Assembly (NCBI GenBank): GCA_038257155.1
Contig: JBBSJP010000015.1
Location: 31,542-95,541 of the forward strand
Direction of reading: 5' to 3'
From: Lysobacterales bacterium
Lineage (GTDB): Bacteria > Pseudomonadota > Gammaproteobacteria > Xanthomonadales > Xanthomonadaceae
Length of the DNA stretch: 64,000 nucleotides
Positions 4,987-46,491 of this stretch are shown here, piece by piece; within the stretch, counting starts at the first letter, position 1; each line of letters opens with the position of its first letter. Under the pieces are notes generated by a model that did no database searches, was not told the DNA's origin, and was given only the letters and a program-made list of their open reading frames with translations. Both the position numbers and the translations under genes were made by a program.

Positions 4987-6783
4987 TCAGCGTTGCCAGC
5001 GAAGATTGAGCAGAAGACTGGCGCCAGGTGTGGCAAACCCCTCGACCAGAACGAAGTCGCGATCCAGCAGGTTGTCGAGGCGGGCATCAAGGGTCAAACC
5101 GGGGCGCAGGTTGAGGCCCGCATTCACCGCGAACGTGGCGTAGCCAGGCAGTGTTCCGGCAAAGTCGGCTATGCCCGAGGCCGCATGCACCTCCAGGCCC
5201 ATTTTCCAGCGCCCAAGGCTGCGCTCGGCACGAAGATTGGCCTTGCGCTGGGCGCGTCGCAGCAGGCGCTGGTCCGTGCTGCGGTCGCGAGGATCCTGCC
5301 AGGTTGCATTCCCGACCAGGTGCCAGCCGCCGATTTCGGTGGTGGCGCCCAGTTCGATGCCGTCTATCTGCACGCGGGCGATGTTGATCGCCTGAAAGTC
5401 GGTGCCGGCAAAGCTGATGAGATCACGAATGCCGGTGCGGAACGCACGCAATTCGACCCGCAGGGCAGAGTCGGAAAACAGACCCAAAGCAAACTCGAAG
5501 TTCTCGGAGCGCTCTGCACCCAGATCCGGGTTTCCCGCAAACAAGCCCCCAAAGCCGGGAGAGTACAGCTCGTTGAAGTTGGGTGCGCGGAAACCCTCAC
5601 CAAAGCCGGCGCGTAGCTCCAGGCTGCGCGAAAGCCGCCAGCCCCAAGCGGCCTGTGCCGTGGTAGCGCTGCCGAAAACGCTGTTGTCATCATGTCGCGC
5701 GGCCAGTTCCAGACTGTGGGAATCGAAACTGCCGCGCCAGCTCGCAAACGCAGCACGATTGCTGCGCTCGCCACGATAGCGTGGGGATCCGTCGAGGGTA
5801 TTCAGCAAGCCGCCCTTCTCCTCGACCCAGGCAAGCCCCAGCAGCAGGGCATGCTGTTCGGAAAGATCCAGGTCGAACTGCCAGTCGAGTTGCTGCCTGC
5901 GACTGTCGAAGCGGTTGAAGAAGGCCTCCGTTTCCAGTTGTTCGCGCGCGGCGCCGAAGCTGAGACGGTGAGTCAACGATTCGCCCAGGGGGCCTGCCAG
6001 CGAAACCTCACCATTGCTGTTCTGCGCGGTCGACACGCCTTGATCGAACTCCGCCCGATCATCGGTATGCAGTGCGCGCAGGGCCAGCAGCTGTTCGGCC
6101 AGCGGCAGGCTCGCGCTGAGCTGCAGGTTGCGCGCCAGGAATCCGTCACGATCCGGATCGAAACTGAAATTGCTGGGCGTGGTGGAATTGAAGCCGCGCG
6201 ACTCGGTGTAGCCGGCGCGCAAACCGATGCTGCCGCGCGTGCTGGTTGTTCCGATCCCTGCATCCAGGCCATGGGTATCGTGGCTGCCGACCCGCAGGCC
6301 GGCTTCGGCTCCCGTTGCCGGGCGGGTGAAGATCTGGATCACGCCACCGATGGCATCCGATCCGTACAGCGCTGCGCGAGGCCCGCGTACGATCTCGATG
6401 CGCTCGATCTGGCTGAGCGGCAGGTGTTCCCAGGCGTATCCGCCGACATTGACCGAGGCCACTCTTACGCCGTCGATCAGGACCAGCAGATGATTGGAAT
6501 TGCTGCCGCGCAGAAACACACTGGTCTGCTGGCCAAATCCGCCACCGCGCACCACGTCGACGCCGGTCTCGCGACGCAGCAGTTCCAGCAGATCGAGTGC
6601 ACCTGCTGACTCGATATCGGCACGCGTGATCACACCGACCGCTGCCAGCGAATCGGCCACCGGCATCGAGGTCCTCTGCGCGGTCACGACGACTTCAGGC
6701 TGTCTTGCCGGCTCTTCGGCCAATGCAGCACCAGACAGTCCGGCAAGCGCCAGACCGACACACTTCAAGCAACGATTCATCCA
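4987..6783 (-). CDS. btuB: TonB-dependent outer-membrane receptor, BtuB-like (cobalamin)
   Basis: Signal peptide MNRCLKCVGLALAGLSGAALA at the internal start. Plug-domain motifs (VVVTAQR, FLRGSNSNHLLVLIDGVR, IERIEIVRGPRAALYGSDAIGGVIQIF). C-terminal barrel. A cobalamin riboswitch lies immediately upstream. Confidence 0.8.
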   Translation of the reverse strand, partial: WMNRCLKCVGLALAGLSGAALAEEPARQPEVVVTAQRTSMPVADSLAAVGVITRADIESAGALDLLELLRRETGVDVVRGGGFGQQTSVFLRGSNSNHLLVLIDGVRVASVNVGGYAWEHLPLSQIERIEIVRGPRAALYGSDAIGGVIQIFTRPATGAEAGLRVGSHDTHGLDAGIGTTSTRGSIGLRAGYTESRGFNSTTPSNFSFDPDRDGFLARNLQLSASLPLAEQLLALRALHTDDRAEFDQGVSTAQNSNGEVSLAGPLGESLTHRLSFGAAREQLETEAFFNRFDSRRQQLDWQFDLDLSEQHALLLGLAWVEEKGGLLNTLDGSPRYRGERSNRAAFASWRGSFDSHSLELAARHDDNSVFGSATTAQAAWGWRLSRSLELRAGFGEGFRAPNFNELYSPGFGGLFAGNPDLGAERSENFEFALGLFSDSALRVELRAFRTGIRDLISFAGTDFQAINIARVQIDGIELGATTEIGGWHLVGNATWQDPRDRSTDQRLLRRAQRKANLRAERSLGRWKMGLEVHAASGIADFAGTLPGYATFAVNAGLNLRPGLTLDARLDNLLDRDFVLVEGFATPGASLLLNLRWQR

Positions 6784-6939
6784 CACACTCCTTGCACAAC
6801 GCACACCCGCGAATTGCGCGTTGCGGAGCAGGATCAAGGAACGAAGGCAGTCGCCCGCGCACGGGCGACGACTCCGTGCCGTCGCCCACCGCAACGCGCG
6901 CCGTGCGCGGCGCACCGACCTGTGGTCGACACGCGGCGC

Positions 6940-7115
6940 GCCCTGGACCGGTCTCCGGACTTGCAGGGCAGGCAGGCACTGGGCCTGGCTGGTGTCCGCC
7001 GTCTTCCCGGGAGCATTCCCAGTGACGTTTGGCGGACTACGCCTGCTTACCGTTGCGGGGGCAGTGCCGGACTCTCACCGGCTTCCCGAGCACCCGGGGC
7101 GGCGTGGAGTCTAGG
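6940..7115 (-). promoter_or_regulatory. Cobalamin (B12) riboswitch in 5' leader of the TonB receptor gene
   Basis: Minus-strand sequence reads ...GGGAAGCCGGTGAGAGTCCGGCACUGCCCCCGCAACGGUAAG...GUCACUGGGAA...AGCCAGGCCCAGUGCCUGCC. This matches the conserved cobalamin-riboswitch core (GGUGAGAGUCC, CUGCCCCCGCAACGGUAAG) and a B12-box-like element. Confidence 0.75.
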
Positions 7116-7137
7116 CGAAATCCATTGCACCTGTCAC

Positions 7138-8911: not shown

Positions 8912-9057
8912 GGCGGACAGTGTAACCGCGGCCTGGGGCAGGGCGCGGCATCACGCCGCAGTGCATCCGACAACAGCAGCGCGTTCGCGATGTGCGTTCC
9001 CTTGAACGTGACGCGGTGTGGTCGGCAATCCTTCCAGGTACCGGGCCCGCGGAATCC

Positions 9058-9966
9058 TCAGCTGCGGCGCACGCCGTCGATGCGGATCCAGTCTTCGCGA
9101 CGCGCGACCGAAAGCGCGTCGAACCAGGGTGCGTAGCGTGTCAGCAGCGCATCTTCCTGCCCCGCCAGAATGCCGGACAGCGCAATGCGTCCGCCAGGCG
9201 CAACCCGGCTCGCGAGGGTTTCTGCCAGAGCGTCCAATGCCGTAGCCAGGATGTTGGCGACCACCACCGGATACATTGCGGGCGGCTCCTGCTCGGGAAG
9301 ATGCACGCTCAAGCGGGTGCCGACACCGTTGCGCTCGGCGTTGTCGGCCGTGGCGATCAGTGCTTGCGGATCATTGTCAACGCCGACCGCGCGTTCGGCC
9401 CCCAACAGCAGCGCTGCCAGCGCCAGGATCCCTGATCCGCAGCCGAAGTCGAGCACCGCTTTGCCTTCCAGTTCGAGGCCATCCAGCCAGTCCAGGCACA
9501 AGGCCGTGGTTGGATGCGTGCCGGAACCAAAGGCCAGGCCAGGATCGAGTCGAACCACCACCGCGTCCGCAGTCCGCGCGGCATCGGGCAGTTCGCGGTT
9601 CCAGGGCAGGATCCAGGTGCGCCGCCCGAACTGCAGGGGTTCGTACTGATCCATCCAGGCGCGTTCCCAGTCCTGATCCTCGACCACCTCGAACTGCACG
9701 CCGGACAGATCCAGTCCCGGATCGAAAGACTCCAGCGCATGTAGCAGCGTCTGCTCGTCCGTACCGGCGGGAAACAACGCGTTCAGCACCATGTCCTGCC
9801 ACAGCGGCTGCTCTCCGACGCCCGGCTCGAAAATCGCCTGCTCGTCGGGCGCCTCGGCGTGCGCATCGGTCAGTGTGACCGCCAGCGCGCCGACGTCTTC
9901 CAGCGCCTGTTCAAGACGCGGTTGCTGTGATTCTGTGCAGGTCAAGGATAGTTGCAGAAAGGGCAT
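9058..9966 (-). CDS. prmA: Ribosomal protein L11 methyltransferase
   Basis: SAM-binding motif [20 protein letters not shown] plus GVDNDPQAL. Start chosen at internal ATG 9966 (MPFLQL...), giving a typical ~303 aa length; the ORF track extends further upstream. Confidence 0.85.
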
Positions 9967-24082: not shown

Positions 24083-24240
24083 GGTCAGCGGCTGCGCCGC
24101 TTTTGGTAAGTGAGAGGTGAGGAAGTCAGTCGCCCGCTGCGCGGGCTGTAAGTTTTGGTCAGTCGGCGGCTGCGCCGCCTGTAAGAAGTGAGAAGTCAGC
24201 GACGCGACGCTTCGACTGACAGCCCGCGCAGCGGGCGACT
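24083..24240. repeat. GC-rich composite palindromic element (REP-like) between aroQ and accB
   Basis: 22-bp inverted repeat (AGTCGCCCGCTGCGCGGGCTGT at ~24128-24149 and its complement at ~24219-24240), each arm itself palindromic. Also direct repeats GGTCAG(T)CGGCTGCGCCGC...GTAAG.AGTGAGA. Confidence 0.6.
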
Positions 24241-24698
24241 TACTTTCTCTCCTCCTGACTCCCTGGAAGCCGCCGCAAGGCGGCATCCAGGGCAAGGCGG
24301 TAGCTTTCGGCTCCGAAGCCACAAATAACGCCAACCGCCAGGTCGCTCAAATAGCTGTGATGACGAAAGGGCTCGCGTGCGTGTGGGTTGGACACGTGGA
24401 TCTCGATGAACGGGATGGCCACCGCCGCCAGCGCGTCACGCAGCGCCACGGAGGTATGGGTGAAGGCGGCGGGATTGATCAGGATGAAGGCGGTACCATC
24501 GGTCCGTGCCGCCTGGACGCGCTCTACCAGCACGTGTTCGGCATTGGACTGCAGCGCATCCACGCGATGGCCAAGTGCAGCGGCCGACGCGCCGAGCTCC
24601 GCGTCTATCTCGGCCAGCGTGGTGCGGCCATAGACCTCCGGCTCGCGCTGTCCGAGCAGGTTCAGGTTGGGACCATGCAACAGCAGAATCTGCGCCAC
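24240..24698 (-). CDS. aroQ: 3-dehydroquinate dehydratase, type II
   Basis: GTG start ([24 protein letters not shown]). The type II DHQase core extends to ...[34 protein letters not shown]. aroQ-accB-accC order is conserved. Confidence 0.85.
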
Positions 24699-35476: not shown

Positions 35477-35646
35477 CCCTAGGAGCCTGCGCGGCGGAAG
35501 CAATCGAGGCGAAAGCGAGACTGCGCGAGAGCGGAGTTTCGACGATTCGCCGGCCTGTAGTGGTTCTACAGGCCAAGAATCGGCGGAATTCCGGGCCGCG
35601 CAGGCGCGGTTGCAGCCCGGTTGTCTTCTGCCGCGCAGGCTCCTAG
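35477..35646. other. Structured GC-rich element in the 5' leader of the beta-propeller gene (long-range inverted repeat plus internal hairpin)
   Basis: CCTAGGAGCCTGCGCGGCGG (35477-35496) is complementary to CCGCGCAGGCTCCTAGG (35630-35646). Internal hairpin GCCTGTAGTGGTTCTACAGGC at ~35552-35574. Confidence 0.4.
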
Positions 35647-36824
35647 GTCCCTGCAGGCTTGGCCGCCAGCCACTGCAGCACGCTTGGGGGCAGGCTCGAC
35701 TCCTGCTGGCTTCCGCTGCCATCCACTTTTTCTGTAGACCCGCTGCGCGCTGCCAGCAGGCGCGTGGCGCGCAGGCCCAATTCATGTCGACTGGGGTCGG
35801 AGCCGCGCATCACGAAAATCAGCGCGCCCTGCGCAAGGGGCCTGATGGCGTATGCGTCGAGCAATTCTGCCTCGGCGCTCGTCGCCTGAACTGACGCCGT
35901 CGCCACCTCGCTCTGTGCATCCCAGGCTGGCGCCAGCAAGCCATCCTCGGCCAGTCCCTCAGCCTGCCCCACCGCACGCATCAGGTACGTGGCGACCCCG
36001 ACGCGCTCGGCATACGCCAGCGGCGCAAGGCTTAAAGCGGGCGCTGCGCGATAACGCACCTCGACGAACCACGCATCCGGGTCAGCGAGATCGACATCGC
36101 GGTGAACTGCCCAGCCAAGGGTTTCGTCGTCCAGGCTCACTTCGCGCAGACGAGCCACGATCAGCAAGGAACTCTTGGTGGCGAAACGGAATTCGCCCGG
36201 CAGCGCCAGGGTCGCGCCGCCGGAACCCAGCTCGATCTTGCCAAGACGGTAGGAAAGCCGGCTGGCAACCACATCCAGACTGGGAGCTTCAGGCTCGCGT
36301 TCTACCACGGGCACGCTGCGTTCGGGTTCGCGCGACGAGGTGCCGGGTGCGGAGGGCGCCGGCATGGCGCGACGAGCTGGTGGCGCAGTACTCACCCGAG
36401 GGGTTACGGGCACCTGCGGATCAGCACCCTCGGAATCGTCATACCCGGCGTCGTCGTATTCTTCCTCGTCGTAGTCTTCGTACTGCTGACCCTCGCGCGC
36501 CGCCATGATCTTGTCGGCCATTTCGGGATTGTCGCGGCGGATGCGTTCGATGTCGGCTTCAGTCATGTAGGGCGCCTGATCGAGAATGAACTGCTCGACC
36601 GCCTGATTGCCGCTGTGGAACGCCAGCGCGCCGACGATCACTGCCAGGACAAAGGGCAGGCGGATGTCGGAGGCAGGGTCGCCCCAGTGCTTGATTACCG
36701 CAATCAGCGCCGCGGGCCAGAAAAGGAACACCAGGATGGCCAGGCCGCCGCTGGCGCGCGCGGTCTTGACCGTCATCCACAGGATCAGGCCAAACAGGAT
36801 CAGCCACCAGAACGTTGCGGACAT
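35643..36824 (-). CDS. Hypothetical membrane protein (3 N-terminal TM helices, acidic linker, C-terminal globular domain)
   Basis: ATG 36824 preceded by an AGGAGT RBS. MSATFWWLILFGLILW... TM segments. DE-rich linker QYEDYDEEEYDDAGYDDSEG. Confidence 0.6.
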   Translation of the reverse strand: MSATFWWLILFGLILWMTVKTARASGGLAILVFLFWPAALIAVIKHWGDPASDIRLPFVLAVIVGALAFHSGNQAVEQFILDQAPYMTEADIERIRRDNPEMADKIMAAREGQQYEDYDEEEYDDAGYDDSEGADPQVPVTPRVSTAPPARRAMPAPSAPGTSSREPERSVPVVEREPEAPSLDVVASRLSYRLGKIELGSGGATLALPGEFRFATKSSLLIVARLREVSLDDETLGWAVHRDVDLADPDAWFVEVRYRAAPALSLAPLAYAERVGVATYLMRAVGQAEGLAEDGLLAPAWDAQSEVATASVQATSAEAELLDAYAIRPLAQGALIFVMRGSDPSRHELGLRATRLLAARSGSTEKVDGSGSQQESSLPPSVLQWLAAKPAGT

Positions 36825-37339: not shown

Positions 37340-40300
37340 CTACTTCGCCGCCGGCTTGCGCGGCGCGGGCGTCCCGCCGGCCTTGTCGCGTAGTCCGCTG
37401 ATCAGCAGGTCGAGGCGCGTGGCGATGGTGGTGAGCAGCTTCTGCTGCTCGCCGCGGCCCTCGTTGCGCGCGCGGATTTCGTCAACCAGCGGGCGGAAGC
37501 CAACCTCCAGGGCTGAGCGCAGGCCGCCCAGCCACATTGCACTTTCAGTTGCGGTATCGCGCGAGAAGGTGCGCGCCAGGGCCTGCTCGCTCGCGATGCG
37601 CTGCAGCAGGTCGATCAGGGCGGGCCAATGTTCGCTGTTTGCGGCGACGTCGTCGGCGCTGGCGGGCTCGGCGCCGCGCTGGGTGCTGGCATCGGCCAGC
37701 TCGCGCAGGGCCTGGGCAAGCAGGTCGAGGCGCGCGACGACATGCTGGCCGGTTTCGGCCTGCGCGCCCTGCGCCGCACCGAGGGACGACAGGCCTCGCA
37801 CGCCCTCGACCAGGTCATGCAACTGCCCGACCACACGCACGCCGACGTCGCTGTCGGCGCCGCCCATCGATTTGTTGCGGCGGTAGTCGCGCAGGATCTG
37901 CTCCCAACGCGCCTTTTCCACATCGGTCTGGCGGCCGAGCAGTTCGGCCAGCTTGAGCAGGTTCTCTTCGGCGCCGGCGGTGAGCAACTGGGCCTCGCCC
38001 TGGTAGTGGTCGCGCAGCACCTGCTCGATGTCGGCATCGTTCATCGCCGGCGAGAGCTTCTCGGCCAGCTTGTTCATGTTGCGGTAGCTGCCCTGCAGGC
38101 GGAACGGCGGCTCGGTGCGGTAGTCGTCGTCCTGCGCCGCCGAGGCGATGTACTGCTGGTTGACCCGGAACACCGTGTCGCGCACCTGCATCAATCGCCG
38201 CAGCACGGCCTCGATCTCGCCGATCTCGGCGGCGCTGTAGGTGTGTGCCAGTTCGTTGGCGGAAAACGCCTTGCCCTCGGCCTTGGCGATCAGCTTGTAG
38301 ACATCGCTCATCTGGCGCGTGGCCAGCGGCGCCAGGATCGGATTGGAGGTGAGGCAGATCTCCACGTAGCTCATCGCGAAGGCCTCCTGCATGCCGCCCA
38401 GCACGTCGCCCAGGTTGTAGACGTCGGCGCGGTTGGCCAGCATGTCGGGAATCTTGAAGACCTCGCCGGACTCGGTGTAGGGGTTGCCCGCCATCACCAC
38501 GCAGAACTTCTTGCCGCGCAGGTCGAAGGTGCGGGTCTTGCCCTGCCAGACGCCCTCGATGCGGCGGGTGCCGTCGCACAGCGAGATGAATTTCTGCAGG
38601 AATTCCGGATGGGTGTGCTGGATGTCGTCGACATACAGCATGGTGTTGTTGCCCATCGCCAGCGCGAGATTGAGTTTTTCCAGCTCGCGCGCGGCGGTGG
38701 CATCGGGCGCCTGTGCCGGGTCGAGCGAATGCACCGCATGGCCCAGGGCCGGGCCATTGATCTTCATGAAGTTCAGGCCCATGCGATGCGCCACGTACTC
38801 CATCAACGTGGTCTTGCCGTAGCCGGGCGGCGAGATCAGCAGCAGCAGGCCCATCAGGTCGCTGCGCTTGCCTTCGCCGACCGTGCCCATCTGCTTGGCA
38901 AGGTTGTCGCCGATGATCGGCAGGTAGACCTCGCTGATCAGCCGGTTGCGCACGAAGGCGGTCAGCGGCTTTGGCTTGAATTCGCCCAGGCGCATCGATT
39001 CGCGCTCGCGCTCCAGGCGCGCGTGGCGCTGCGCGTGGTACTGCTTGAGGCCCGGCAGGAAGGCGTGGCGGTGATGCTCGAAGCGCGCCTCGAAGTCGTC
39101 CAGCGCTAGCGCCAGGCGGCCGTCCTGGATGCGCGCATGCACACCGAGCAGGCCGGCGACTTCGGTGCGCAGGTCGGCCTGCGCAATTCGATTCGGCAGG
39201 CTCTCGCCGAGCAGCAGCAAGGCGGCGGCCTCGTTGCGGTAGTCGCGCAGCGCGCCGAGCTCAGTATCGCCAAGCAGGGCGTCGAGCCAGCCCAGCAGCA
39301 GGTTCCAGCGCGCGTCCAGGCGACCATCTAGGCGCTTCAGGGTGTCCTGCAGTTCGTGCCAGGCATGCGCGGTTTCCAGGCGCTCGCGCAAGGCCTTGGC
39401 AAGCTGGGCGGCGTATTTGCTGAAGTGGAACTGCACATGCTCGGCAGCCAGTTCGTGCTGCAGATAGTCGGCTGCGCGCTTGAGGTGCACGCCGTCCAGC
39501 GGCAGTCCGCGCTCAAGGGCAAAAGCTTCCAAGGCCTGCGCGAGTTCATTGCGCAGCGCCAGACCGCCACCGCCATGACCGAACAGCTCGCGCATGCGGC
39601 GCGCGGCGCGTGCGCGTTCGGGCCAGGTCGCGGACTGCTTGTGCGAGTTGATCAGCTCGGACCAGCCGAGCAGGGCGAGGGCGCGGTCATCGGGTGCATA
39701 GCGCAATGAACCGGCCTGCGCACGCAGCGGCAGCAGCGCAGACAGGATCAGGCTGGCGTCGTGGTCGTGGATGCCCTTCTCGTAGCCCTCGCGATAGCGC
39801 GCGGAAGCGAAATCGCGCAGGCGCTGCTGCAGGCCATCGGGCTGCAGCGCGAGGCGTTCCAGCTCGCTCATGCTCCAGCCATCGCTGCCGGCTTCGGCCG
39901 CCTCCAGCACGCAGCCCGCAAGGTACTCGCCGCGATACAGCGTGGCCGATTCGGATTCCAGATCGACCGCCCAGTAATCGCGTGCCGCGTCCAGTTCCGG
40001 ATCGTGCAGGGCCTGCAGGTAATCGGTGCCGGTGAGGTGCAGGTAGAGCCCGTCCTCACGCGGCATCAGGGTGAGGTCGAGCTCCTGGCGATTGACGCTG
40101 AAGCGGTGCCGACCGAAGCGCAGGGTTTCGCCGCCGGCGTCGAACAGTTCACTGCGGTCGCGCAGCGCGCGCAGGGCCTGGTCACGCGCCGCCTTGAGGC
40201 GCGATTCGACATCGTCGGCTTTGACGTTGTCCTTCAGGCCGCGCAGGCGCTCGGCCAGATCGCGCAGCTTGAGCACCAGCGGATCGCCGGCGAAGAAGGC

Positions 40301-42736
40301 GTTGAGCTGGTCCTGGTCGGTGAGTCGCTCGCTGCGCCGCGGCAGGCCTTCCAGGATGCGGATGGCGGCATCGTGCACGCCCTGCGCCTTGCGCTGGCGT
40401 TCGTCGAGCAGCGCCTGGCGCTGGCCCTCGAAGGCTTCCAGCACTTCCTCGCGCTTGGCCAGGATGTCGCCGAGGAACTGCTCGTGCTCGCCGAACTGGC
40501 TTTCCAGTTCTTCCAGTTGCACCAGCACGCGCGCCAGTTGTTCCTCGCAGGCTTCCGGCTCGCGTGCCTGCGACAGGGCGCTGGCGACACTCTGGCCAAA
40601 CAGCTGGAACTGCGCGCCGAACTGCGCCACGGCCTCCGATGAGCCGAGTGATTTGCGTCGTTGCTCGGCGCGCGCGCGGGCCTGGTTGAGGCGGGCATAC
40701 AGTGCCGAGATCGCCTCGACCACGCGGGTGCGTTCGGCCGCGTCTTCGACCGGCAGGCTGCCCATCAGGTTCGACAGCATGTCGAGATCGGAGCCCAGGT
40801 CAGCCAGGCCCTTGAGCGGCTCGCGCAGCTGACCACCGCTGCTGGCGGCCTGCGCCTTCGTATCCAGCGCAGTCAAACGGTCGCCGAGCGGTGTCAGCGC
40901 GGCGGGACTGGCGACGAAGCTGCCAGTGGCCTGGCCGGTGCGCTGCTGCGCCTCGAGCAACTCGGCCTCCATCGCGTCGATGGCGGCCACGTCGATGTAG
41001 CGGAAGTCGCGGATCGTCAGCAGGCGGCCGCGCAACGCGGCGATGCCGTTCAGCGCGTCGACGTAATCCTGCACCTTGTCCCAGCGCTCGGGCTGCAGCG
41101 ACTTCAGCAGTGCAGCCTGCTGCGTGCGCGCTTCAGTCAGGGCCTGCTCGGACTGACGCCGGATGCTGACGACTTTCTCGTACTCGTCGAGCACCTGTTC
41201 GCTGGTCGCGGCGATCTCGCGCACCAGGCTGGCGGCGCCCTGGCAGTTGCTGTCGTCGACCCAGTGGTGCAGGTCGAACAGGCGACGGGTCTCGGCCACC
41301 AGGCGCTCGAAGCGCTGCGCCGAGATGTCGGTCGATTCGATTTCGCGCGCCACGCCGAGCAGGTCGGACAGGCCGCGTACCAGTTCGGCATTGCCGATCT
41401 TGCCCATGAAGCTGGTGCGCGGCGGCTGGCGCGCGGCGAACTCTTCGGTGGTGAAGGGCGTTTGCCAGATCTGCATCGGATGCACGCGCGTGGCTTCGGC
41501 GCTCTCGGCGCTGAACACCACCATGCGGCCGTCCTCCATCATGGCGTAGCCATGCGCGAAGATCGGCGTCTGCAGGCGACGCTGGATCAGGTTGTAGGTG
41601 AACAGCGCGAAGCGGCCTTCCTCGGGCTCGTAGAACACGTACAGCACGTCTTCGCCATTCGGCGAACGCAGCACGCGCTTGAAACCCATGCCGTCCATCG
41701 AGCGTTCGAAGCGGCGGTACTCGCCGTTCTGCAGCACATAACCGCCGGGGAACACGATGCCGTGGTCTTCCGGCAACTGGATGCAGGCCGCGCCGATGGC
41801 ATCAATGCGCAACACGCTTTGCGTGATGCGGTTGTAGACCAGGTAGCGCCAGACCTCTTCGCGATAGGGCAGCACCCGCAGCAGGATGAGGCTGCCGACC
41901 TGGGCGAACTCGACGATCGCGTCGTCGAGCGACTGGGTCTTGTCGGCAACTGGCTCGCGGTACACGCCGAGGCCGTCTTCGGTGTTGTTCTCGACCTTGA
42001 CGGTGAGGTCGCCGGCAACGGTCTCGACGAACACGGTGTCGAGGATGTTCAGATGCGGGTGGCGGCCGTGCACCGCGTGCTCGCGCGTGCAGCGTGTCCA
42101 CTCGAAGTCATAGGCCGGCGGCGGCGCGATGTCGCGTTCGCCGCGGTTGTCGATGTAGCGGATCTGGCTGCCGTCGGACGAGACGTTCCAGCGAAACACG
42201 CGCACATCGGTCAGGCGCTCGCCGATCTGGAAGCTGGCCAGCAGCTTGCCCTGCCGCACCACCAGCTGCAGCAGGCGGGTGTGCTTGTAATAGGCGTACA
42301 GCTCGCGGAAATCGTTGCGGAAATCGGGCGCATCGAGAAAGCTGCCCGCGACCGGCACTGGCTCGCCTTCGAAGCCCTCGCCCTCCTCTTTCAGGCGATA
42401 GAGCGAGAACACATCCTCGACAACGGTTTCCTTCTTCAGCCCGATGAAGACGTTGTAGCCGAACAGCAGCAGATGCCCGACCTGCACGATATCGCGCGCC
42501 GCACAGTTGTTCTCGGTGCGCACCCGCAGCCGCCCGGCGACAGCCATCTCGCTGCTGCCGAACTCGGCCAGGCGCTGGGTGTTGAGCGCATCGACCACAC
42601 CCGCAAGCCGCGAGCCCTGTTCAACCAGGCGCTTGTGCAGCACTTCGTAAGCGCCACCTTCGGTGACGGCGCGGTCGACATTGCTGGTATCGGGGGTGGG
42701 GTTGGTCATGGGGCGAGTTTCAAACGTGTGAGACAT
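37340..42736 (-). CDS. Giant (1798 aa) protein with a single central AAA+-like P-loop ATPase module and extensive helical regions
   Basis: Uninterrupted 5.4-kb ORF. Walker A LISPPGYGKTTLMEYV, Walker B-like MLYVDDIQH, sensor-like VVMAGNP. Long helical Glu/Arg/Leu-rich stretches. No signal peptide. Confidence 0.85.
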   Translation of the reverse strand: MSHTFETRPMTNPTPDTSNVDRAVTEGGAYEVLHKRLVEQGSRLAGVVDALNTQRLAEFGSSEMAVAGRLRVRTENNCAARDIVQVGHLLLFGYNVFIGLKKETVVEDVFSLYRLKEEGEGFEGEPVPVAGSFLDAPDFRNDFRELYAYYKHTRLLQLVVRQGKLLASFQIGERLTDVRVFRWNVSSDGSQIRYIDNRGERDIAPPPAYDFEWTRCTREHAVHGRHPHLNILDTVFVETVAGDLTVKVENNTEDGLGVYREPVADKTQSLDDAIVEFAQVGSLILLRVLPYREEVWRYLVYNRITQSVLRIDAIGAACIQLPEDHGIVFPGGYVLQNGEYRRFERSMDGMGFKRVLRSPNGEDVLYVFYEPEEGRFALFTYNLIQRRLQTPIFAHGYAMMEDGRMVVFSAESAEATRVHPMQIWQTPFTTEEFAARQPPRTSFMGKIGNAELVRGLSDLLGVAREIESTDISAQRFERLVAETRRLFDLHHWVDDSNCQGAASLVREIAATSEQVLDEYEKVVSIRRQSEQALTEARTQQAALLKSLQPERWDKVQDYVDALNGIAALRGRLLTIRDFRYIDVAAIDAMEAELLEAQQRTGQATGSFVASPAALTPLGDRLTALDTKAQAASSGGQLREPLKGLADLGSDLDMLSNLMGSLPVEDAAERTRVVEAISALYARLNQARARAEQRRKSLGSSEAVAQFGAQFQLFGQSVASALSQAREPEACEEQLARVLVQLEELESQFGEHEQFLGDILAKREEVLEAFEGQRQALLDERQRKAQGVHDAAIRILEGLPRRSERLTDQDQLNAFFAGDPLVLKLRDLAERLRGLKDNVKADDVESRLKAARDQALRALRDRSELFDAGGETLRFGRHRFSVNRQELDLTLMPREDGLYLHLTGTDYLQALHDPELDAARDYWAVDLESESATLYRGEYLAGCVLEAAEAGSDGWSMSELERLALQPDGLQQRLRDFASARYREGYEKGIHDHDASLILSALLPLRAQAGSLRYAPDDRALALLGWSELINSHKQSATWPERARAARRMRELFGHGGGGLALRNELAQALEAFALERGLPLDGVHLKRAADYLQHELAAEHVQFHFSKYAAQLAKALRERLETAHAWHELQDTLKRLDGRLDARWNLLLGWLDALLGDTELGALRDYRNEAAALLLLGESLPNRIAQADLRTEVAGLLGVHARIQDGRLALALDDFEARFEHHRHAFLPGLKQYHAQRHARLERERESMRLGEFKPKPLTAFVRNRLISEVYLPIIGDNLAKQMGTVGEGKRSDLMGLLLLISPPGYGKTTLMEYVAHRMGLNFMKINGPALGHAVHSLDPAQAPDATAARELEKLNLALAMGNNTMLYVDDIQHTHPEFLQKFISLCDGTRRIEGVWQGKTRTFDLRGKKFCVVMAGNPYTESGEVFKIPDMLANRADVYNLGDVLGGMQEAFAMSYVEICLTSNPILAPLATRQMSDVYKLIAKAEGKAFSANELAHTYSAAEIGEIEAVLRRLMQVRDTVFRVNQQYIASAAQDDDYRTEPPFRLQGSYRNMNKLAEKLSPAMNDADIEQVLRDHYQGEAQLLTAGAEENLLKLAELLGRQTDVEKARWEQILRDYRRNKSMGGADSDVGVRVVGQLHDLVEGVRGLSSLGAAQGAQAETGQHVVARLDLLAQALRELADASTQRGAEPASADDVAANSEHWPALIDLLQRIASEQALARTFSRDTATESAMWLGGLRSALEVGFRPLVDEIRARNEGRGEQQKLLTTIATRLDLLISGLRDKAGGTPAPRKPAAK

Positions 42737-42748
42737 TCAAGCCCCTCT

Positions 42749-42840
42749 CCCGCCGGGAGAGGGGTTGGGGAGAGGGGCAAACGGAGCCCGAAGCTTTGGG
42801 CAAGTCCAGCCCCTCACCCCCGCCCCTCTCCCGTGGGGAG
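42749..42840. repeat. Pair of GC-rich hairpins sharing the stem CCCCTCTCC...GGAGAGGGG (REP-like)
   Basis: CCCCTCTCCCGCCGGGAGAGGGG at 42749-42771 and CCCCTCTCCCGTGGGGAGAGGGG at ~42818-42840, immediately after the giant gene's start. Confidence 0.65.
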
Positions 42841-42880
42841 AGGGGAGCGAAGCGGAACGGCCCAGCACCACTCCAGTTTC

Positions 42881-43051
42881 CCGTTCGTGGTGAGGAGCGA
42901 TCGAGGCATCCGCGCAGCGGATGACCGAGAGCGCGTCTCGAACCACATGCTGGATGGTTCGAGACGCCACCTCGTTCGGCCGCCAACGCGGCTGCGAGGC
43001 GCTGCGCGCCTTCGCGCTGCGCGCGCCTCGATGGCTCCTCACCACGAACGG
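42881..43051. repeat. Nested inverted-repeat element (MITE/REP-like) between flotillin and giant ATPase genes
   Basis: 26-bp terminal IR CCGTTCGTGGTGAGGAGCGATCGAGG (42881-42906) versus its complement at 43026-43051 (25/26 match). Inner palindrome GCGTCTCGAACCA...TGGTTCGAGACGC at ~42932-42969. Confidence 0.65.
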
Positions 43052-43105
43052 TTTATGGGGGAGGCTCATGGCAGCAGTTCAAGCAATCAAGAACCCAGCG
43101 CTCGC

Positions 43106-45064
43106 CTATTCCTCCCCACCCTTCTTCGGCACCTTGCGCTTGCCCTCATCCCCATCGCTCTTGCCCAGATACTTCGCCAACAAGTCCTGCACGATTGGAC
43201 TTTTGCCGGCAATGCCTTCGATCGCCTTGCCCACCGACAGCGACCTGGCAAAGGAATTGAAGAAGTCGCCCTCGCCGCCAACGATGTCGATCTTGGCCTT
43301 GGACAGCGCCGCCGACAGCACTTCGGCCTGTTCGCGTGCGATGTCCTTGCTGGCATCGATCGAGGCAATCGCCTGCTCGAAGTTCTTTTCGAGCTGCATG
43401 CGGAATTCCTCGTGGGTGCGGGCACCGTCGTCGAGCTTGGATAGCGCATCAAACTTCTCGGTGAGGCCCTTGGCCTCGGCCTGGAACTTCTGCAGCAGCA
43501 CATCGGCCTCGGCCGTGCCCTGCTTGCGCCAGGCCTCGGCCTTGGCTTCGGTGACGCGAGCCTGGGAAAGGCCCTTCTCCTGTTCGCCGCGCGCTTCAGC
43601 CATCAGTTGCTCTTCGAGCGACTTTGCTTTGGCCAGTCCCTCGCGTTCGGTCGCCGCGGCGCCAACCTCGCGCACCCGCGCATCGGCCAGGCCCGGCGCG
43701 GCGCGCTCGGCCTCGGTGCCTTCGGCCATCTTCTTCTTGCCCTCGGACTGCTTGCCTGCGGCTTCCAACTCGGCTTGCGCCAAGGTGGTGATCTCGATCG
43801 CCTTGTGCTTGGCCTTTTCCTCGTCGGCCTCGGCCTGCTTGACCTGGCGCACCAGTTCTTCTTCGGCCATCGCCTGGGCATTGAGGATCGCGACCTGCTT
43901 GGCGCGATCGGCAAAGGAAACTTCGCGAACTTCCTTGATGCGCTCCTCTTCCTGCGCCACGGATTTCTCCACCACGATGCGCTCGCGGATCACCCCGGCG
44001 ATGATCTGGCGCTGTTCTTCCAGGGCTTTTTCCTTTTCGATGCGCTGCAGCTCGACTTCACGTTCCCGGGCCACCTGCTCCAGGGCCTTGGCGCGGGCCA
44101 CCTTCTCGACTTCGATCACCACCGCGCGCTGACGGTTCTGCTGCGCCACTTCCACTTCGCGTTGGCGGTTCTCTTCGCGGATCTCGATGGTTTCCTGGGT
44201 CTGGATGCGGGCCTGCTCGGAACGCAGGCGCTCTTCCTCCTGAACCTTCTTGGTTTCGGCCTGTTCGCGCGCCTGGATGGTTTCGATCTCGCGCTTCTGG
44301 CGCGCCTCGGCGTCGGCCTGCTGGCGCTCCAGCGCCAGGGTCGCCTCGCGCGTCTCGACGTTCTTCTTCTTCATCGCCAGCTCTTCGTTGCGCTCGAGCT
44401 CGTTGGTGATGACGTTCTGCGCGGCGGTCAGCTCGGTGATCTTGCGGATGCCCTCGGCATCGAGGATGTTGTTGGGATCGAGCGAGGACTTCGGCGTCTG
44501 CTCCAGGTAGTCGATCGCCACGTCTTCCAGCACGTAGCCGTTCAGATCGTTGCCGATCACTTCCACGATGCGGTCGCGGAATTCCTGGCGGTTCTCGAAC
44601 AGCTTGACGAAGTCGATCTTCTTGCCGACCGTCTTCAGCGCCTCGGAGAACTTGGCATTGAACAGTTCGTTCACCGCGCCCTTTTCCGAGGCGCGATCCA
44701 CGCCGATCGCCTTGGCCACTTTCAGCACGTCCTGCTGGGTCTCATTGACGCGCAGGTAGAACGCCACCGTGATGTCGGCGCGCATATTGTCCTGGCAGAT
44801 CAGCCCATCCTTGCCGCGCCGGTCGACCTCCAGCGTGATCAGGGAGATCTTCATGAACTCCTTCTTGTAGACCACCGGGTACACCAGGGCGCCGGTGAAG
44901 TGCACCTTGGGAGTGGAAGACAGGTCGTTGACGATCAGCGCGGTGCCCTGCGGGACCTTGATGTAGAAGGCCTTGAACAGGGCGAACAGGCCCACGATCA
45001 CGACGACAACAACGCCAAGTCCGATCAGGAACGGCATCAGGAAGGCAAGATCCATGGCAAACAC
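43106..45064 (-). CDS. Flotillin-like SPFH/band-7 protein (YqiK-like) with extended coiled coil
   Basis: N-terminal TM hairpin (LAFLMPFLIGLGVVVVVIVGLFALF). SPFH domain (YIKVPQGTALIVNDLSSTPKVHFTGALVYPVVYKKEFMKISL...). ~350 aa EA/EQ/K-rich coiled coil. Confidence 0.85.
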   Translation of the reverse strand: MFAMDLAFLMPFLIGLGVVVVVIVGLFALFKAFYIKVPQGTALIVNDLSSTPKVHFTGALVYPVVYKKEFMKISLITLEVDRRGKDGLICQDNMRADITVAFYLRVNETQQDVLKVAKAIGVDRASEKGAVNELFNAKFSEALKTVGKKIDFVKLFENRQEFRDRIVEVIGNDLNGYVLEDVAIDYLEQTPKSSLDPNNILDAEGIRKITELTAAQNVITNELERNEELAMKKKNVETREATLALERQQADAEARQKREIETIQAREQAETKKVQEEERLRSEQARIQTQETIEIREENRQREVEVAQQNRQRAVVIEVEKVARAKALEQVAREREVELQRIEKEKALEEQRQIIAGVIRERIVVEKSVAQEEERIKEVREVSFADRAKQVAILNAQAMAEEELVRQVKQAEADEEKAKHKAIEITTLAQAELEAAGKQSEGKKKMAEGTEAERAAPGLADARVREVGAAATEREGLAKAKSLEEQLMAEARGEQEKGLSQARVTEAKAEAWRKQGTAEADVLLQKFQAEAKGLTEKFDALSKLDDGARTHEEFRMQLEKNFEQAIASIDASKDIAREQAEVLSAALSKAKIDIVGGEGDFFNSFARSLSVGKAIEGIAGKSPIVQDLLAKYLGKSDGDEGKRKVPKKGGEE

Positions 45065-45133
45065 TCCGAGGCGATGGACGAACAGTGGCGGCGGCGCCCT
45101 GCGGCGATGCCGTGAAGCAGGAAGTGAAACGGG

Positions 45134-45760
45134 TCAGGCGGCGTGCTTGGCGATCACGCGGTAGGCATTCTGCAGCGTCAGGTATTCCACTAGTACCACT
45201 TCGTCACCGCGTGAGAATTGGCCAGGGTCAGCGCGGACCTGCAGGACCAGTCCTGCACCGCCGTCCTCCAGATTCGCGGTTCCCTGCGAATCGGTGACAT
45301 GAGGGCTGCGCACGATGGCGATCTTGCCGAGCAGGGATTCGCTGTCGGTGGGCTTGAGCTTGGCAAATAACGGTGACAGCGGGCGCAGTGCCAGGCCGGT
45401 GATCGGCATGGCAACAACAACAGCGCCCAACAGCAGGCCGGAACCGAGGGCATAGCGCATCACTCCGGTGCCCAGGTGCTGCAGCAGGAACAGGTCGACG
45501 AAGTAGGTGAGCAGCCAGCCAAAAAATATGAAGCCGGTAGCGATCAAGGTCACCGGCACCCCATCCAGGCCCCATTTCATCAGCAGGCCGGCAACACCGC
45601 CAACATCCAGATCCATACCGTCCGGCATGGGCGCGAAATTCAGGATCTCCAGATCGATCAGGCCGATCATGGCCATCATCCAATAGATCACCGCCACCGC
45701 CAGCAGAACGCTGAAAACCACGGTGGGAAATGAAAGCGCGATTTGCAGGAACTCGTCCAT
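45134..45760 (-). CDS. YqiJ/NfeD-like inner-membrane protein (flotillin partner)
   Basis: Start MDEFLQIALSFPTVVFSVLLAVAVIYW. Multiple TM helices then a C-terminal OB-like segment (GKIAIVRSPHVTDSQGTANLEDGGAGLVLQVRADP...GDEVVLVEY). 69 bp upstream of the flotillin gene. Confidence 0.7.
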   Translation of the reverse strand: MDEFLQIALSFPTVVFSVLLAVAVIYWMMAMIGLIDLEILNFAPMPDGMDLDVGGVAGLLMKWGLDGVPVTLIATGFIFFGWLLTYFVDLFLLQHLGTGVMRYALGSGLLLGAVVVAMPITGLALRPLSPLFAKLKPTDSESLLGKIAIVRSPHVTDSQGTANLEDGGAGLVLQVRADPGQFSRGDEVVLVEYLTLQNAYRVIAKHAA

Positions 45761-45918
45761 GGTTCGAAGGCCCCCCGACGGCGTCTTTACGTTCCGAGAC
45801 AGCTGGAAGGATAGGCAATAGCGGCGCCGCGCGCCATGTCCCGGAGGGCAGGCTTGGTTTTCGGCTCGCCTGCCCCAAGAGATTTCGGTTACCCGTGGCT
45901 GAAACTGACTACCCATCC

Positions 45919-46169
45919 TCCGTTCGCACTGAGCGTAGCTGGCCGCAGGCCGGCGAAGTCGAAGTGCCTACCGCGTGTCCTTCGACTTCGGCCCCGCGGG
46001 CCTACGCTCAGGACGAACGGGTGTGGTTGGGCGGATGGGTGGTGCTGTCTGAGTCAATCTCTCCATGCCGTTCGCACTGAGCTTGGCTGGCCGCAGGCCG
46101 GCGAAGTCGAAGTGCCTGCCACGGGTCCTTCGACTTCGACCCCGCGGGCCTACGCTCAGGACGAACGGG
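45919..46169. repeat. Two tandem ~100-bp hairpin-forming repeat units (REP/MITE-like)
   Basis: Unit 1 at 45919-46022 and unit 2 at 46068-46169. Each has terminal IR CCGTTCGCACTGAGC(G/T)T.G...CTACGCTCAGGACGAACGG and inner IR GAAGTCGAAGTGCC...CTTCGACTTC. Confidence 0.8.
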
Positions 46170-46242
46170 CTGGCGAACAGGTGACGCCCCGCCGTTGTCT
46201 CGATACCATCGACCAAACCTCAACAAAGCCCTCGATAGCCCC

Positions 46243-46491
46243 ATGTCAGAAAGCCGCGACTACCTCGAGATGTCCTTCAAGTCGATCGAGTATTTCGCCA
46301 AGGACGGACGCCTGCATGCGCACGAGCTGGAGCAGCTCTACGCGCTGGCAATGCGCGATGGCAAGCTCGATGCCAATGAGGTGCGGGTGCTGAAGTCGGT
46401 GATCGATCGCATCCGCCCGGAGGAACTCGACGACGCGATGAAGGTGACGCTCGGTGAGATTACGCGCCGGCTCGGCAAGCCGGGCGGCTGA
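46243..46491 (+). CDS. Small hypothetical protein (possibly TerB-like helical)
   Basis: ATG 46243, 82 aa, MSESRDYLEMSFKSIEYFAKDGRLHAHELEQLYALAMRDGKLDANEVRVLKSVIDRI... Confidence 0.45.
   Translation: MSESRDYLEMSFKSIEYFAKDGRLHAHELEQLYALAMRDGKLDANEVRVLKSVIDRIRPEELDDAMKVTLGEITRRLGKPGG

Follow-up and report, generated by a model that had tools for sequence, protein, structure and literature searches.

The hairpin repeats closest to those analyzed here are served by a small nuclease. SsnA, a 94-aa GIY-YIG protein, binds the NTS hairpin in one orientation, provided that the DNA is single-stranded, cuts upstream of it, and cleaves neither double-stranded DNA nor RNA (Chenal et al., 2025, PMC11893778). 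The ssnA locus has the layout NTS-ssnA-NTS, and thousands of homologues possess flanking hairpins of their own (PMC11893778). The repetitive extragenic palindromes (REPs) tagged by CGTC, which include the NTS, are found without a transposase (Di Nocera, De Gregorio and Rocco, 2013, PMC3733652). Here we analyze palindromic elements in a 64,000-nucleotide stretch of a Lysobacterales genome (hereafter the window), primarily in the spacer between a flotillin-family gene and a gene for a giant ATPase with DUF3686 and AAA domains. Two elements lie in this spacer, which separates two minus-strand genes: a double hairpin rich in C occupies 42741-42846, and a nested palindrome of 171 bp occupies 42881-43051.

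With a probability that we estimate at roughly 0.7, the hairpin repeats in the spacer belong to two unrelated families, selfish or domesticated, and are copies without a gene; in other genomes, members of each family lie as inverted ends on either side of a tiny gene for a stand-alone nuclease. In the first family, which includes the 171-bp palindrome and the elements at 45920-46168, inverted pairs of a module starting with CCGTTCG bracket a gene for a single-domain GIY-YIG protein of about 95 aa, and the 171-bp element would represent two such modules joined without the nuclease gene. In the second family, represented by the two CCCCTCTCCC hairpins, units consisting of a C-rich leader and a hairpin with one pyrimidine and one purine arm bracket genes of the Vsr-like DUF559 family.

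Architecture of the CCGTTCG elements

The 171-bp element has 27-nt arms with 96% complementarity and a perfect central hairpin (GCGTCTCGAACCA/TGGTTCGAGACGC); folded as DNA, it reaches -78.2 kcal/mol (z = -10.5). The initial annotation of this sequence had described a nested element of about 170 bp with 26-bp termini, and of this description the element itself stands, with the arms corrected to 27 nt. Its right module contains, relative to the orthologue in a 92% relative (L106), an additional nested hairpin of about 36 nt at ~42977-43012. Two further dimers, which we denote B-type, are 94% identical to each other over 102 nt. Each of them (45920-46020 and 46068-46168) starts with CCGTTCG and ends with CGAACGG, the pair that also delimits the 171-bp element, as originally noticed. 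In the first copy, the stem is CACT/AGTG in the left module and TCCT/AGGA in the right one.

The A-type module, of which the 171-bp element contains two, begins with CCGTTCG and one strand of a 4-bp stem; GAGGAGC and GCGTCTCGA then enclose a tip hairpin of variable sequence, and the other strand of the stem follows. Some modules end in (TA)CGAACGG, which closes the unit into one hairpin of 44-55 nt. The B-type plan is the same with a different box (CCGTTCG-CACT-GAGCGTAGC-[hairpin]-GAAGTCGA-AGTG), and the general module can be written as CCGTTCG-stem-GAG-[tip hairpin]-TCGA-stem', in which the 4-bp stem covaries, the hypervariable tip hairpin is optional and CGAACGG follows in some cases. In the B elements, stem pairing is intact inside each module and lost between the two arms, which identifies the module, and not the long palindrome, as the conserved unit. 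Conserved unpaired flanks give the module an orientation, and it has in this respect the hairpin-with-flanks organization of the Ssn/SRM system. Modules are found as outward-facing dimers (as in the window), back-to-back pairs, single units and tandem arrays. Where the tip is a simple triloop, it takes the form C-GNA-G in 23 of 32 cases; C-GNA-G is a hyper-stable type of DNA mini-hairpin, and its predominance hints at a hairpin that forms at the DNA level.

Two other readings of the conserved boxes were tried and rejected. A hammerhead or a kink-turn, considered by eye for the GAG/TCGA box, found no Rfam ribozyme match, and the box is a 7-bp helix with a GA bulge; for the tRNA-like string GGTTCGA, ARAGORN returned nothing.

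Distribution and covariation of the CCGTTCG modules

The exact 18-mer terminus CCGTTCGTGGTGAGGAGC was sought in one genome per species and was matched in at least 104 stretches, against about 17 expected by chance in the whole collection according to our own arithmetic. Among the matches listed, single assemblies from Lysobacteraceae, Candidatus Babeliales and several alpha- and gammaproteobacteria contain 5-9 separate loci with the 18-mer; the window holds three CCGTTCG dimers in 64 kb. The full A-type module, with a self-complementary stretch followed by GCGTCTCGAACCA, is present at 78 of the 116 listed 18-mer sites, and its tips at these sites are perfect hairpins whose sequences are unrelated to one another. 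With the stem left free, the listed matches comprise TGGT/ACCA (73), TCCT/AGGA (9), CCCT/AGGG (8) and TGCT/AGCA (2). Elements similar to the 171-bp dimer are also present in metagenome-assembled genomes of Lysobacteraceae. Comparison of the A and B elements with plasmids by blastn gave no match, the conserved boxes being too short for BLAST, and no relevant literature matches were obtained for peptide or DNA strings of the elements.

The pairing within the module is supported by covariation. In an alignment of 30 sequences, 95.9% of the cells pair compared to 74.1% in shuffled alignments, and none of 500 shuffles reaches the observed value. Compensatory change on both sides is seen in 8 of 14 pairs, and pairing drops to 37-54% in controls with slid partners. 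The inner GAG/TCGA box helix is invariant, including its G.T pair.

Taken by itself, the heptamer CCGTTCG shows no enrichment in the window, where it occurs 17 times (6 of these being the exact termini of the three palindromes) and 15 occurrences are expected, so the kinship of the elements had to be tested by other means. The heptamer count would suit a likeness among the elements that reflects only chance similarity of GC-rich palindromes, but this explanation is already refuted by the excess of 18-mer matches, the covariation, the gene association and, for the C-rich hairpins, a pattern with 0.00 expected occurrences (see below for the latter two). What confirms the kinship of the CCGTTCG elements is their common architecture and common gene association, not the heptamer count.

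In the Candidatus Babeliales genome with locus L082 (copies at 5160-5178 and 5675-5692), the 16 nt that precede CCGTTCG (TGCATTGATAGAATC) recur between the two copies, and the repeat unit of this genome may reach past the heptamer.

Association of the CCGTTCG modules with a GIY-YIG nuclease

Two of the first 104 listed module loci contain an open reading frame (ORF) between a convergent pair of modules. In one of these (L095), a module is followed by a GIY-YIG gene, which encodes an intact 95-aa protein (PF01541, E = 1.6e-16), and by an inverted module; the other, L082, has the same layout with a frameshifted copy of the gene. Pfam assigns the protein to PF01541 only, and NCBIfam to no family. 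Homologues of this protein often bear read-through tails, such as ERASTGSARTE, VSTSLDTNG, LRSGRTG and PFDKLRANG, that, judging by their sequences, are translated modules.

For an independent test, 80 metagenomic loci were picked on the basis of GIY-YIG protein similarity alone. A sense terminus lies within 260 nt upstream of the gene in 44 of these loci and an antisense terminus downstream in 43; termini on both sides are found in 33, compared to an expectation of about 0.1. The usual offsets from the gene are -53 to -64 and +25 to +70. Most of the apparent negatives bear variants of the same plan (e.g., CCGCTCA-TCCT-GAG-CTTG-TCGA-AGGA), and under a generic definition at least one module is detected in 75 of 83 protein-chosen loci, with modules on both sides in 42 of the 83. 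The class of the module agrees across the gene (minimal/minimal in 32 cases, B/B in 4, A/A in 2). The B-type modules that flank the gene in one locus (L169) are 88% identical to those of the window, and in the isolate Lysobacter sp. TAF61 (L187) the only four modules in 20 kb, which are B-type like those of the window, flank the GIY-YIG gene. Thus, the pairing of modules with GIY-YIG genes exists in the family to which the window belongs. The interiors of the modules beside the TAF61 gene (L187, 9864-9968 and 10366-10475) are tandemly repeated 3-4 times, in units of about 31 nt (AGCGTAGGCGCGGAGCGCCGAAGTCGAAGGA).

A homing scenario has to be considered at this point. The GIY-YIG gene sits exactly between inverted modules that directly abut in the gene-less dimers, the module class is identical on both sides of the gene, and GIY-YIG is a classical homing-endonuclease fold (PMC1564403); under this scenario, the gene-less palindromes would be homing targets, with the nuclease cutting empty dimers and the gene being copied into the palindrome centre by repair, and the dimers of the window would be unoccupied sites instead of decayed elements. 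Such a scenario appears unlikely, given that gene-less copies far outnumber the gene-bearing ones, that single modules, back-to-back pairs and tandem arrays are not made by pure homing, that the characterized relative SsnA cuts single-stranded DNA only, and that the GIY-YIG proteins in question have no separate DNA-binding domain.

Association of the C-rich hairpins with DUF559 genes

Each of the two C-rich units in the spacer consists of the leader CCCCTC(A/T)CCCC, 2 nt, and the hairpin CCCCTCTCCC-loop-GGGAGAGGGG. Two hairpins with identical stems had been claimed initially, and the pattern CCCCTCTCCC-N3-GGGAGAGGGG indeed occurs twice in the window, at 42742-42764 and 42823-42845, against 0.00 occurrences expected (100 shuffles). 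No other pyrimidine-arm/purine-arm hairpins occur in the 64 kb, and both of these are the outer portions of a longer inverted repeat (42742-42778/42809-42845; 37 nt, 86% complementary).

A search with the 114-nt double hairpin yielded many matches in each replicon, which cover more than 90% of the query at 72-74% identity: 12-24 per replicon in Azospirillum lipoferum, 12 in Vitreoscilla, 39 in Cupriavidus and at least 40 in a Xanthomonas sacchari plasmid. Single units are found as far as cyanobacteria and Deinococcus. Some of the matches fell under genes annotated as DUF559, and in Deinococcus aetherius a leader-plus-hairpin unit is followed by the gene for a 114-aa DUF559 protein (WP_264778003.1; PF04480, E = 1.2e-36) and an inverted unit. 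Altogether, 13 DUF559 loci from Deinococcus, alpha-, beta- and gammaproteobacteria and cyanobacteria were collected by tblastn; in 11 of these, pyrimidine-arm/purine-arm hairpins lie within 250 nt of the gene, at a density of 6.9 per kb, whereas other loci, about 1 Mb in total, have 0.07 per kb (an approximately 100-fold difference). In the two cyanobacterial exceptions (L196, Pseudanabaena, and L198, Picosynechococcus PCC 7002 pAQ6), the DUF559 genes are flanked by an analogous unit of the same plan and another sequence, namely the leader GCCCCCCTAG and the hairpin CCCCCC-AATTCT-GGGGGG.

Peptides corresponding to the C-rich units are absent among the GIY-YIG homologues examined, and therefore the C-rich units show no tie to the GIY-YIG clade. 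The original suggestion of related REP/MITE-like elements (MITE, miniature inverted-repeat transposable element) is broadly right: the elements belong to multi-copy families, the two types with CCGTTCG follow a common module plan, and presence varies among close relatives. The C-rich hairpins form a separate family, which the initial annotation did not recognize. No pairing of DUF559 with hairpin repeats is evident in the searched papers that mention DUF559, as far as titles and the openings of abstracts reveal, and from the sequences of the 13 loci we propose the C-rich hairpin/DUF559 pairing as a new one.

The two nuclease associations also bear on the more conventional interpretation, under which the elements are classical REPs or REPINs moved by a RAYT transposase (REP-associated tyrosine transposase, of the Y1 HUH type), or else MITEs of a DDE insertion sequence, and the nuclease genes are adjacent only incidentally. 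The elements resemble such repeats in being short, GC-rich, extragenic and multi-copy imperfect palindromes, the inverted dimers of which fold into larger structures similarly to REPINs and bacterial interspersed mosaic elements (BIMEs) (PMC3116915, PMC3733652). However, the stem located where the 5' GTAG/GTGG tag (as defined in PMC4690160) would sit varies among TGGT, CCCT, TCCT and CACT, clustering of recurrent ORFs in the 104 listed module loci gave no transposase-like family, and the GIY-YIG and DUF559 associations are far above chance. We regard this interpretation as quite improbable.

Presence of the elements in relatives and their possible role in the operon

The string of genes for a 208-aa protein, the flotillin-family protein and the giant ATPase with DUF3686, DUF7902 and AAA domains (37340-45916, minus strand) is conserved in L106 and in another relative, L105, the flotillin of which is 98% identical; within this string, the relatives differ in the spacers only. 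The spacer of L105 is 175 nt long and contains a C-rich double hairpin without the 171-bp element, and that of L106 contains an orthologous CCGTTCG dimer of 135 bp at the same site and a lone degenerate C-rich hairpin. Close relatives lack one or the other element and, accordingly, neither is required by the operon. The divergent region that carries both B elements in the window is 144 nt long and empty in L106, and harbors a different palindrome in L105. The latter (~8950-9230, orthologous to 45760-46244 of the window) has the arms TTGGTGCTGAGCGCAGCGAAGCC/GGCTTCGCTGCGCTCAGCACCAACC, and its TGAGCG.AGC core resembles the B-type box.

These observations are pertinent to the possibility that the elements are functional RNA elements of the operon, i.e., a terminator, an attenuator, a processing site or an mRNA stabilizer between the flotillin and ATPase genes. 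Being located within a co-directional gene pair, they would be transcribed, and the entire spacer folded as RNA reaches -251.7 kcal/mol (z = -12.4); moreover, REPs can serve as 3' stabilizers in Escherichia coli. However, the spacer (42712-43105) contains no terminator-like or promoter-like site and its hairpins lack T runs, so that the terminator role envisaged in the initial annotation is not borne out. Scans of the spacer against Rfam 15, with gathering and E-value thresholds, produced only sub-threshold matches to generic microRNA hairpins, and no family fits; the sole match in the window at the Rfam threshold is a cobalamin riboswitch outside the spacer (6929-7129, minus strand), with 85.2 bits for RF00174, the gathering score of which is 31.5. 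Furthermore, close relatives with the same operon lack the elements or carry others in their place, and members of the same families occupy divergent promoter regions as well as sites of unrelated context in different phyla. The absence in relatives, together with the lack of terminator, promoter and Rfam signals, favors gain-and-loss dynamics over a function specific to the operon. A role specific to the flotillin-ATPase operon is not supported, and an RNA element of this kind appears very improbable; mRNA stabilization and recombination, the other functions originally suggested, are possible as side effects.

Proposed mode of action and its assessment

By analogy with SsnA and the NTS, we infer that a module folds once the DNA is single-stranded, e.g., during replication, transformation or conjugation, and that the cognate nuclease would bind the folded module in one orientation and nick close by. 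Such nicking could spread or maintain the repeats and modulate recombination. The copies in the flotillin-ATPase operon would be passengers; on the polycistronic mRNA, they would form very stable hairpins, with a possible incidental effect on mRNA decay. The sequences directly show the structure of the repeats, their covariation, their multi-copy presence across phyla, their gene association and their dispensability; recognition of single-stranded DNA, cleavage, mobility and any RNA effect belong to the inferred part.

Several observations weigh against the proposal that the spacer elements are gene-less copies of nuclease-associated repeats. No gene of the GIY-YIG or the DUF559 type is present in the 64-kb window. 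The published SRM pattern (HGTCWYN(0-2)YYVSBRHN(0-5)WNVSBRGN(0-2)RNCYNB) has no matches on either strand of the window and none beside the GIY-YIG gene in 80 of the 80 metagenomic loci, and the closest solved relatives of the GIY-YIG clade are the UPF0213 proteins 1zg2 and 1ywl. The DUF559 sample is small (the 13 loci) and comes from a single collection. In the C-rich dimer of the window, the two hairpins point away from each other and the two leaders toward each other, which is the opposite of the gene-bearing order in Deinococcus, so this dimer is not a simple deletion derivative. Finally, the elements have ends resembling terminal inverted repeats, and no target-site duplication was found at 42881/43051, 45920/46020 or 46068/46168; nor could a precise empty site be defined from the orthologous loci, because the orthologous flanks are too diverged to delimit insertion boundaries.

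On balance, we still favor the view that the spacer elements are gene-less copies of such repeats. In a more general form, the proposal is that orphan REP-like hairpin families pair with small stand-alone nucleases and that two pairings for which we found no description are represented here, that of a GIY-YIG clade similar to UPF0213, and distinct from NTS/SRM, with the CCGTTCG-N4-GAG...TCGA-N4' modules, and that of DUF559 with the C-rich units; this generalization we consider about evenly balanced between right and wrong. If it holds, it provides the first concrete hypothesis on the substrate of DUF559 proteins, namely as hairpin- or strand-specific nucleases, and a wider set of programmable pairs of single-stranded DNA nucleases and sites. 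The nuclease link would carry the 2025 Ssn concept to a second class of hairpins and possibly to a second nuclease fold, would offer a function for DUF559, and opens direct and cheap experiments with one protein and one oligonucleotide.

There are also consequences for annotation. The repeats rank among the most frequent causes of spurious 'hypothetical proteins' in bacterial genomes of high G+C content, and no partner had been assigned to them previously. Such repeats yield 'hypothetical proteins' in databases as well as false N- or C-terminal extensions; a 110-aa ORF with an ATG start (42737-43069, minus strand) that lies wholly within the repeat elements is almost certainly spurious. ORFs of this kind should be masked, and long structured spacers should not be taken for operon-specific regulators.

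Features of the window

The coordinates of the elements and of the two genes that delimit the spacer are given in Table 1. The G+C content of the window is about 64%. From comparison with L105 and L106, the ATPase gene most likely starts at the ATG at 42711-42709. Two other palindromic regions were noticed in the window. A dense cluster of GC-rich hairpins at 24086-24290 (GCGGCTGCGCCGC, CGCCCGCTGCGCGGGC and similar sequences), in which 24114-24153 and 24215-24254 form inverted arms of 40 nt, looks like a separate repeat family, and a 170-bp palindromic element occupies 35478-35647, with 23-nt arms (CCTAGGAGCCTGCGCGGCGGAAG/CTTCTGCCGCGCAGGCTCCTAGG) of 96% complementarity.

Table 1. Hairpin elements in and near the flotillin-ATPase spacer, and the genes that delimit it
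Feature	Positions	Strand	Remarks
A-type CCGTTCG module dimer	42881..43051	no strand	171 bp; outward-facing termini; no gene between the modules
Left A-type module	42881..42945	plus	CCGTTCG-TGGT-GAGGAGC-[variable hairpin, C-GCA-G tip]-GCGTCTCGA-ACCA
Right A-type module	42955..43051	minus sense	
B-type CCGTTCG dimer, copy 1	45920..46020	no strand	core GAGCGTAG..GAAGTCGA
B-type CCGTTCG dimer, copy 2	46068..46168	no strand	divergent intergenic region; 148 nt from copy 1, start to start
C-rich double-hairpin element	42741..42846	no strand	two units in inverted orientation
Left C-rich unit, hairpin	42742..42764	minus	leader, then hairpin, on the minus strand
Left C-rich unit, leader	42766..42778	minus	GGGGAGAGGGGC as read on the plus strand
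Right C-rich unit, leader	42809..42821	plus	GCCCCTCACCCCC
Right C-rich unit, hairpin	42823..42845	plus	
Flotillin-family gene	43106..45055	minus	upstream of the spacer; named from homologues
Giant ATPase gene (DUF3686 + AAA)	37340..42711	minus	downstream of the spacer; 1,798 aa

Comparison with known repeat systems

The elements described here share features with several known classes of repeats. Similarly to BIMEs of E. coli and to MITEs such as the Correia elements, they form mosaic hairpin clusters of alternating orientation that are intergenic, co-transcribed with operons and variable between strains, but no terminal TA or target-site duplication is seen, and the gene of the parent element is one for a nuclease, not for a DDE transposase. 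With the REP/REPIN-RAYT system (Nunvar, 2010; Bertels and Rainey, 2011), they share the extragenic GC-rich imperfect palindromes, the inverted doublets that fold into long hairpins, and the single-copy protein gene flanked by repeats that are present in many gene-less copies. In contrast to that system, there is no invariant GTAG/GTGG tag, GTGG being present only if the stem is TGGT (PMC4690160), and the partner is a GIY-YIG or DUF559 nuclease rather than a Y1 HUH transposase. Just upstream of a module-flanked GIY-YIG gene in L169 (22-56), there are REP-like sequences that carry a GTGG tag and belong to the pseudomonad/xanthomonad type (GTGGGAGCCCGCTTGCGGGCGA), which indicates that RAYT-type REPs and the modules coexist.

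The CGTC-tagged REPs (PMC3733652) are likewise an orphan superfamily of palindromes without a dedicated transposase that are mostly found as head-to-head dimers and are widespread in Proteobacteria, and the A-type module has GCGTC beside its 8-bp central stem. The CGTC-tagged REPs have 8-9-bp stems beginning with AT, 4-5-nt loops and a CCA tail, and the elements of the window fit neither this description nor the SRM pattern. The protein family that adjoins the C-rich units, DUF559 (PF04480), is a Vsr-like endonuclease domain of the PD-(D/E)XK type.

NTS-like CGTC-tagged repeats (e.g., TGTCATTCCCGCGAAGGCGGGAATCCAT) are present in three loci that also contain a module-flanked GIY-YIG gene, as head-to-head dimers in L163 (3059-3135) and L178 (2563-2643) and as a single match in L183 (537-564); they do not adjoin the gene, and thus two classes of hairpins coexist in the same genomes.

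The Ssn/SRM system shows the closest resemblance to the CCGTTCG family, with a gene for a single-domain GIY-YIG protein of about 95 aa between inverted hairpin repeats of 20-50 nt (here in related loci only), many gene-less copies, non-palindromic flanks that orient the hairpin, dimers, and a distribution over many phyla. The repeat itself is different, the NTS motif being CGTC-ATTCCCGC-loop-GCGGGAAT-CC and the module CCGTTCG-N4-GAG...TCGA-N4'. Judged by sequence, the GIY-YIG clade described here is probably best termed Ssn-like, and we do not claim membership in the Ssn family proper (cd10448). By this analogy, the pairing of the GIY-YIG gene with the CCGTTCG modules appears to be a new variant of the Ssn system described in 2025.

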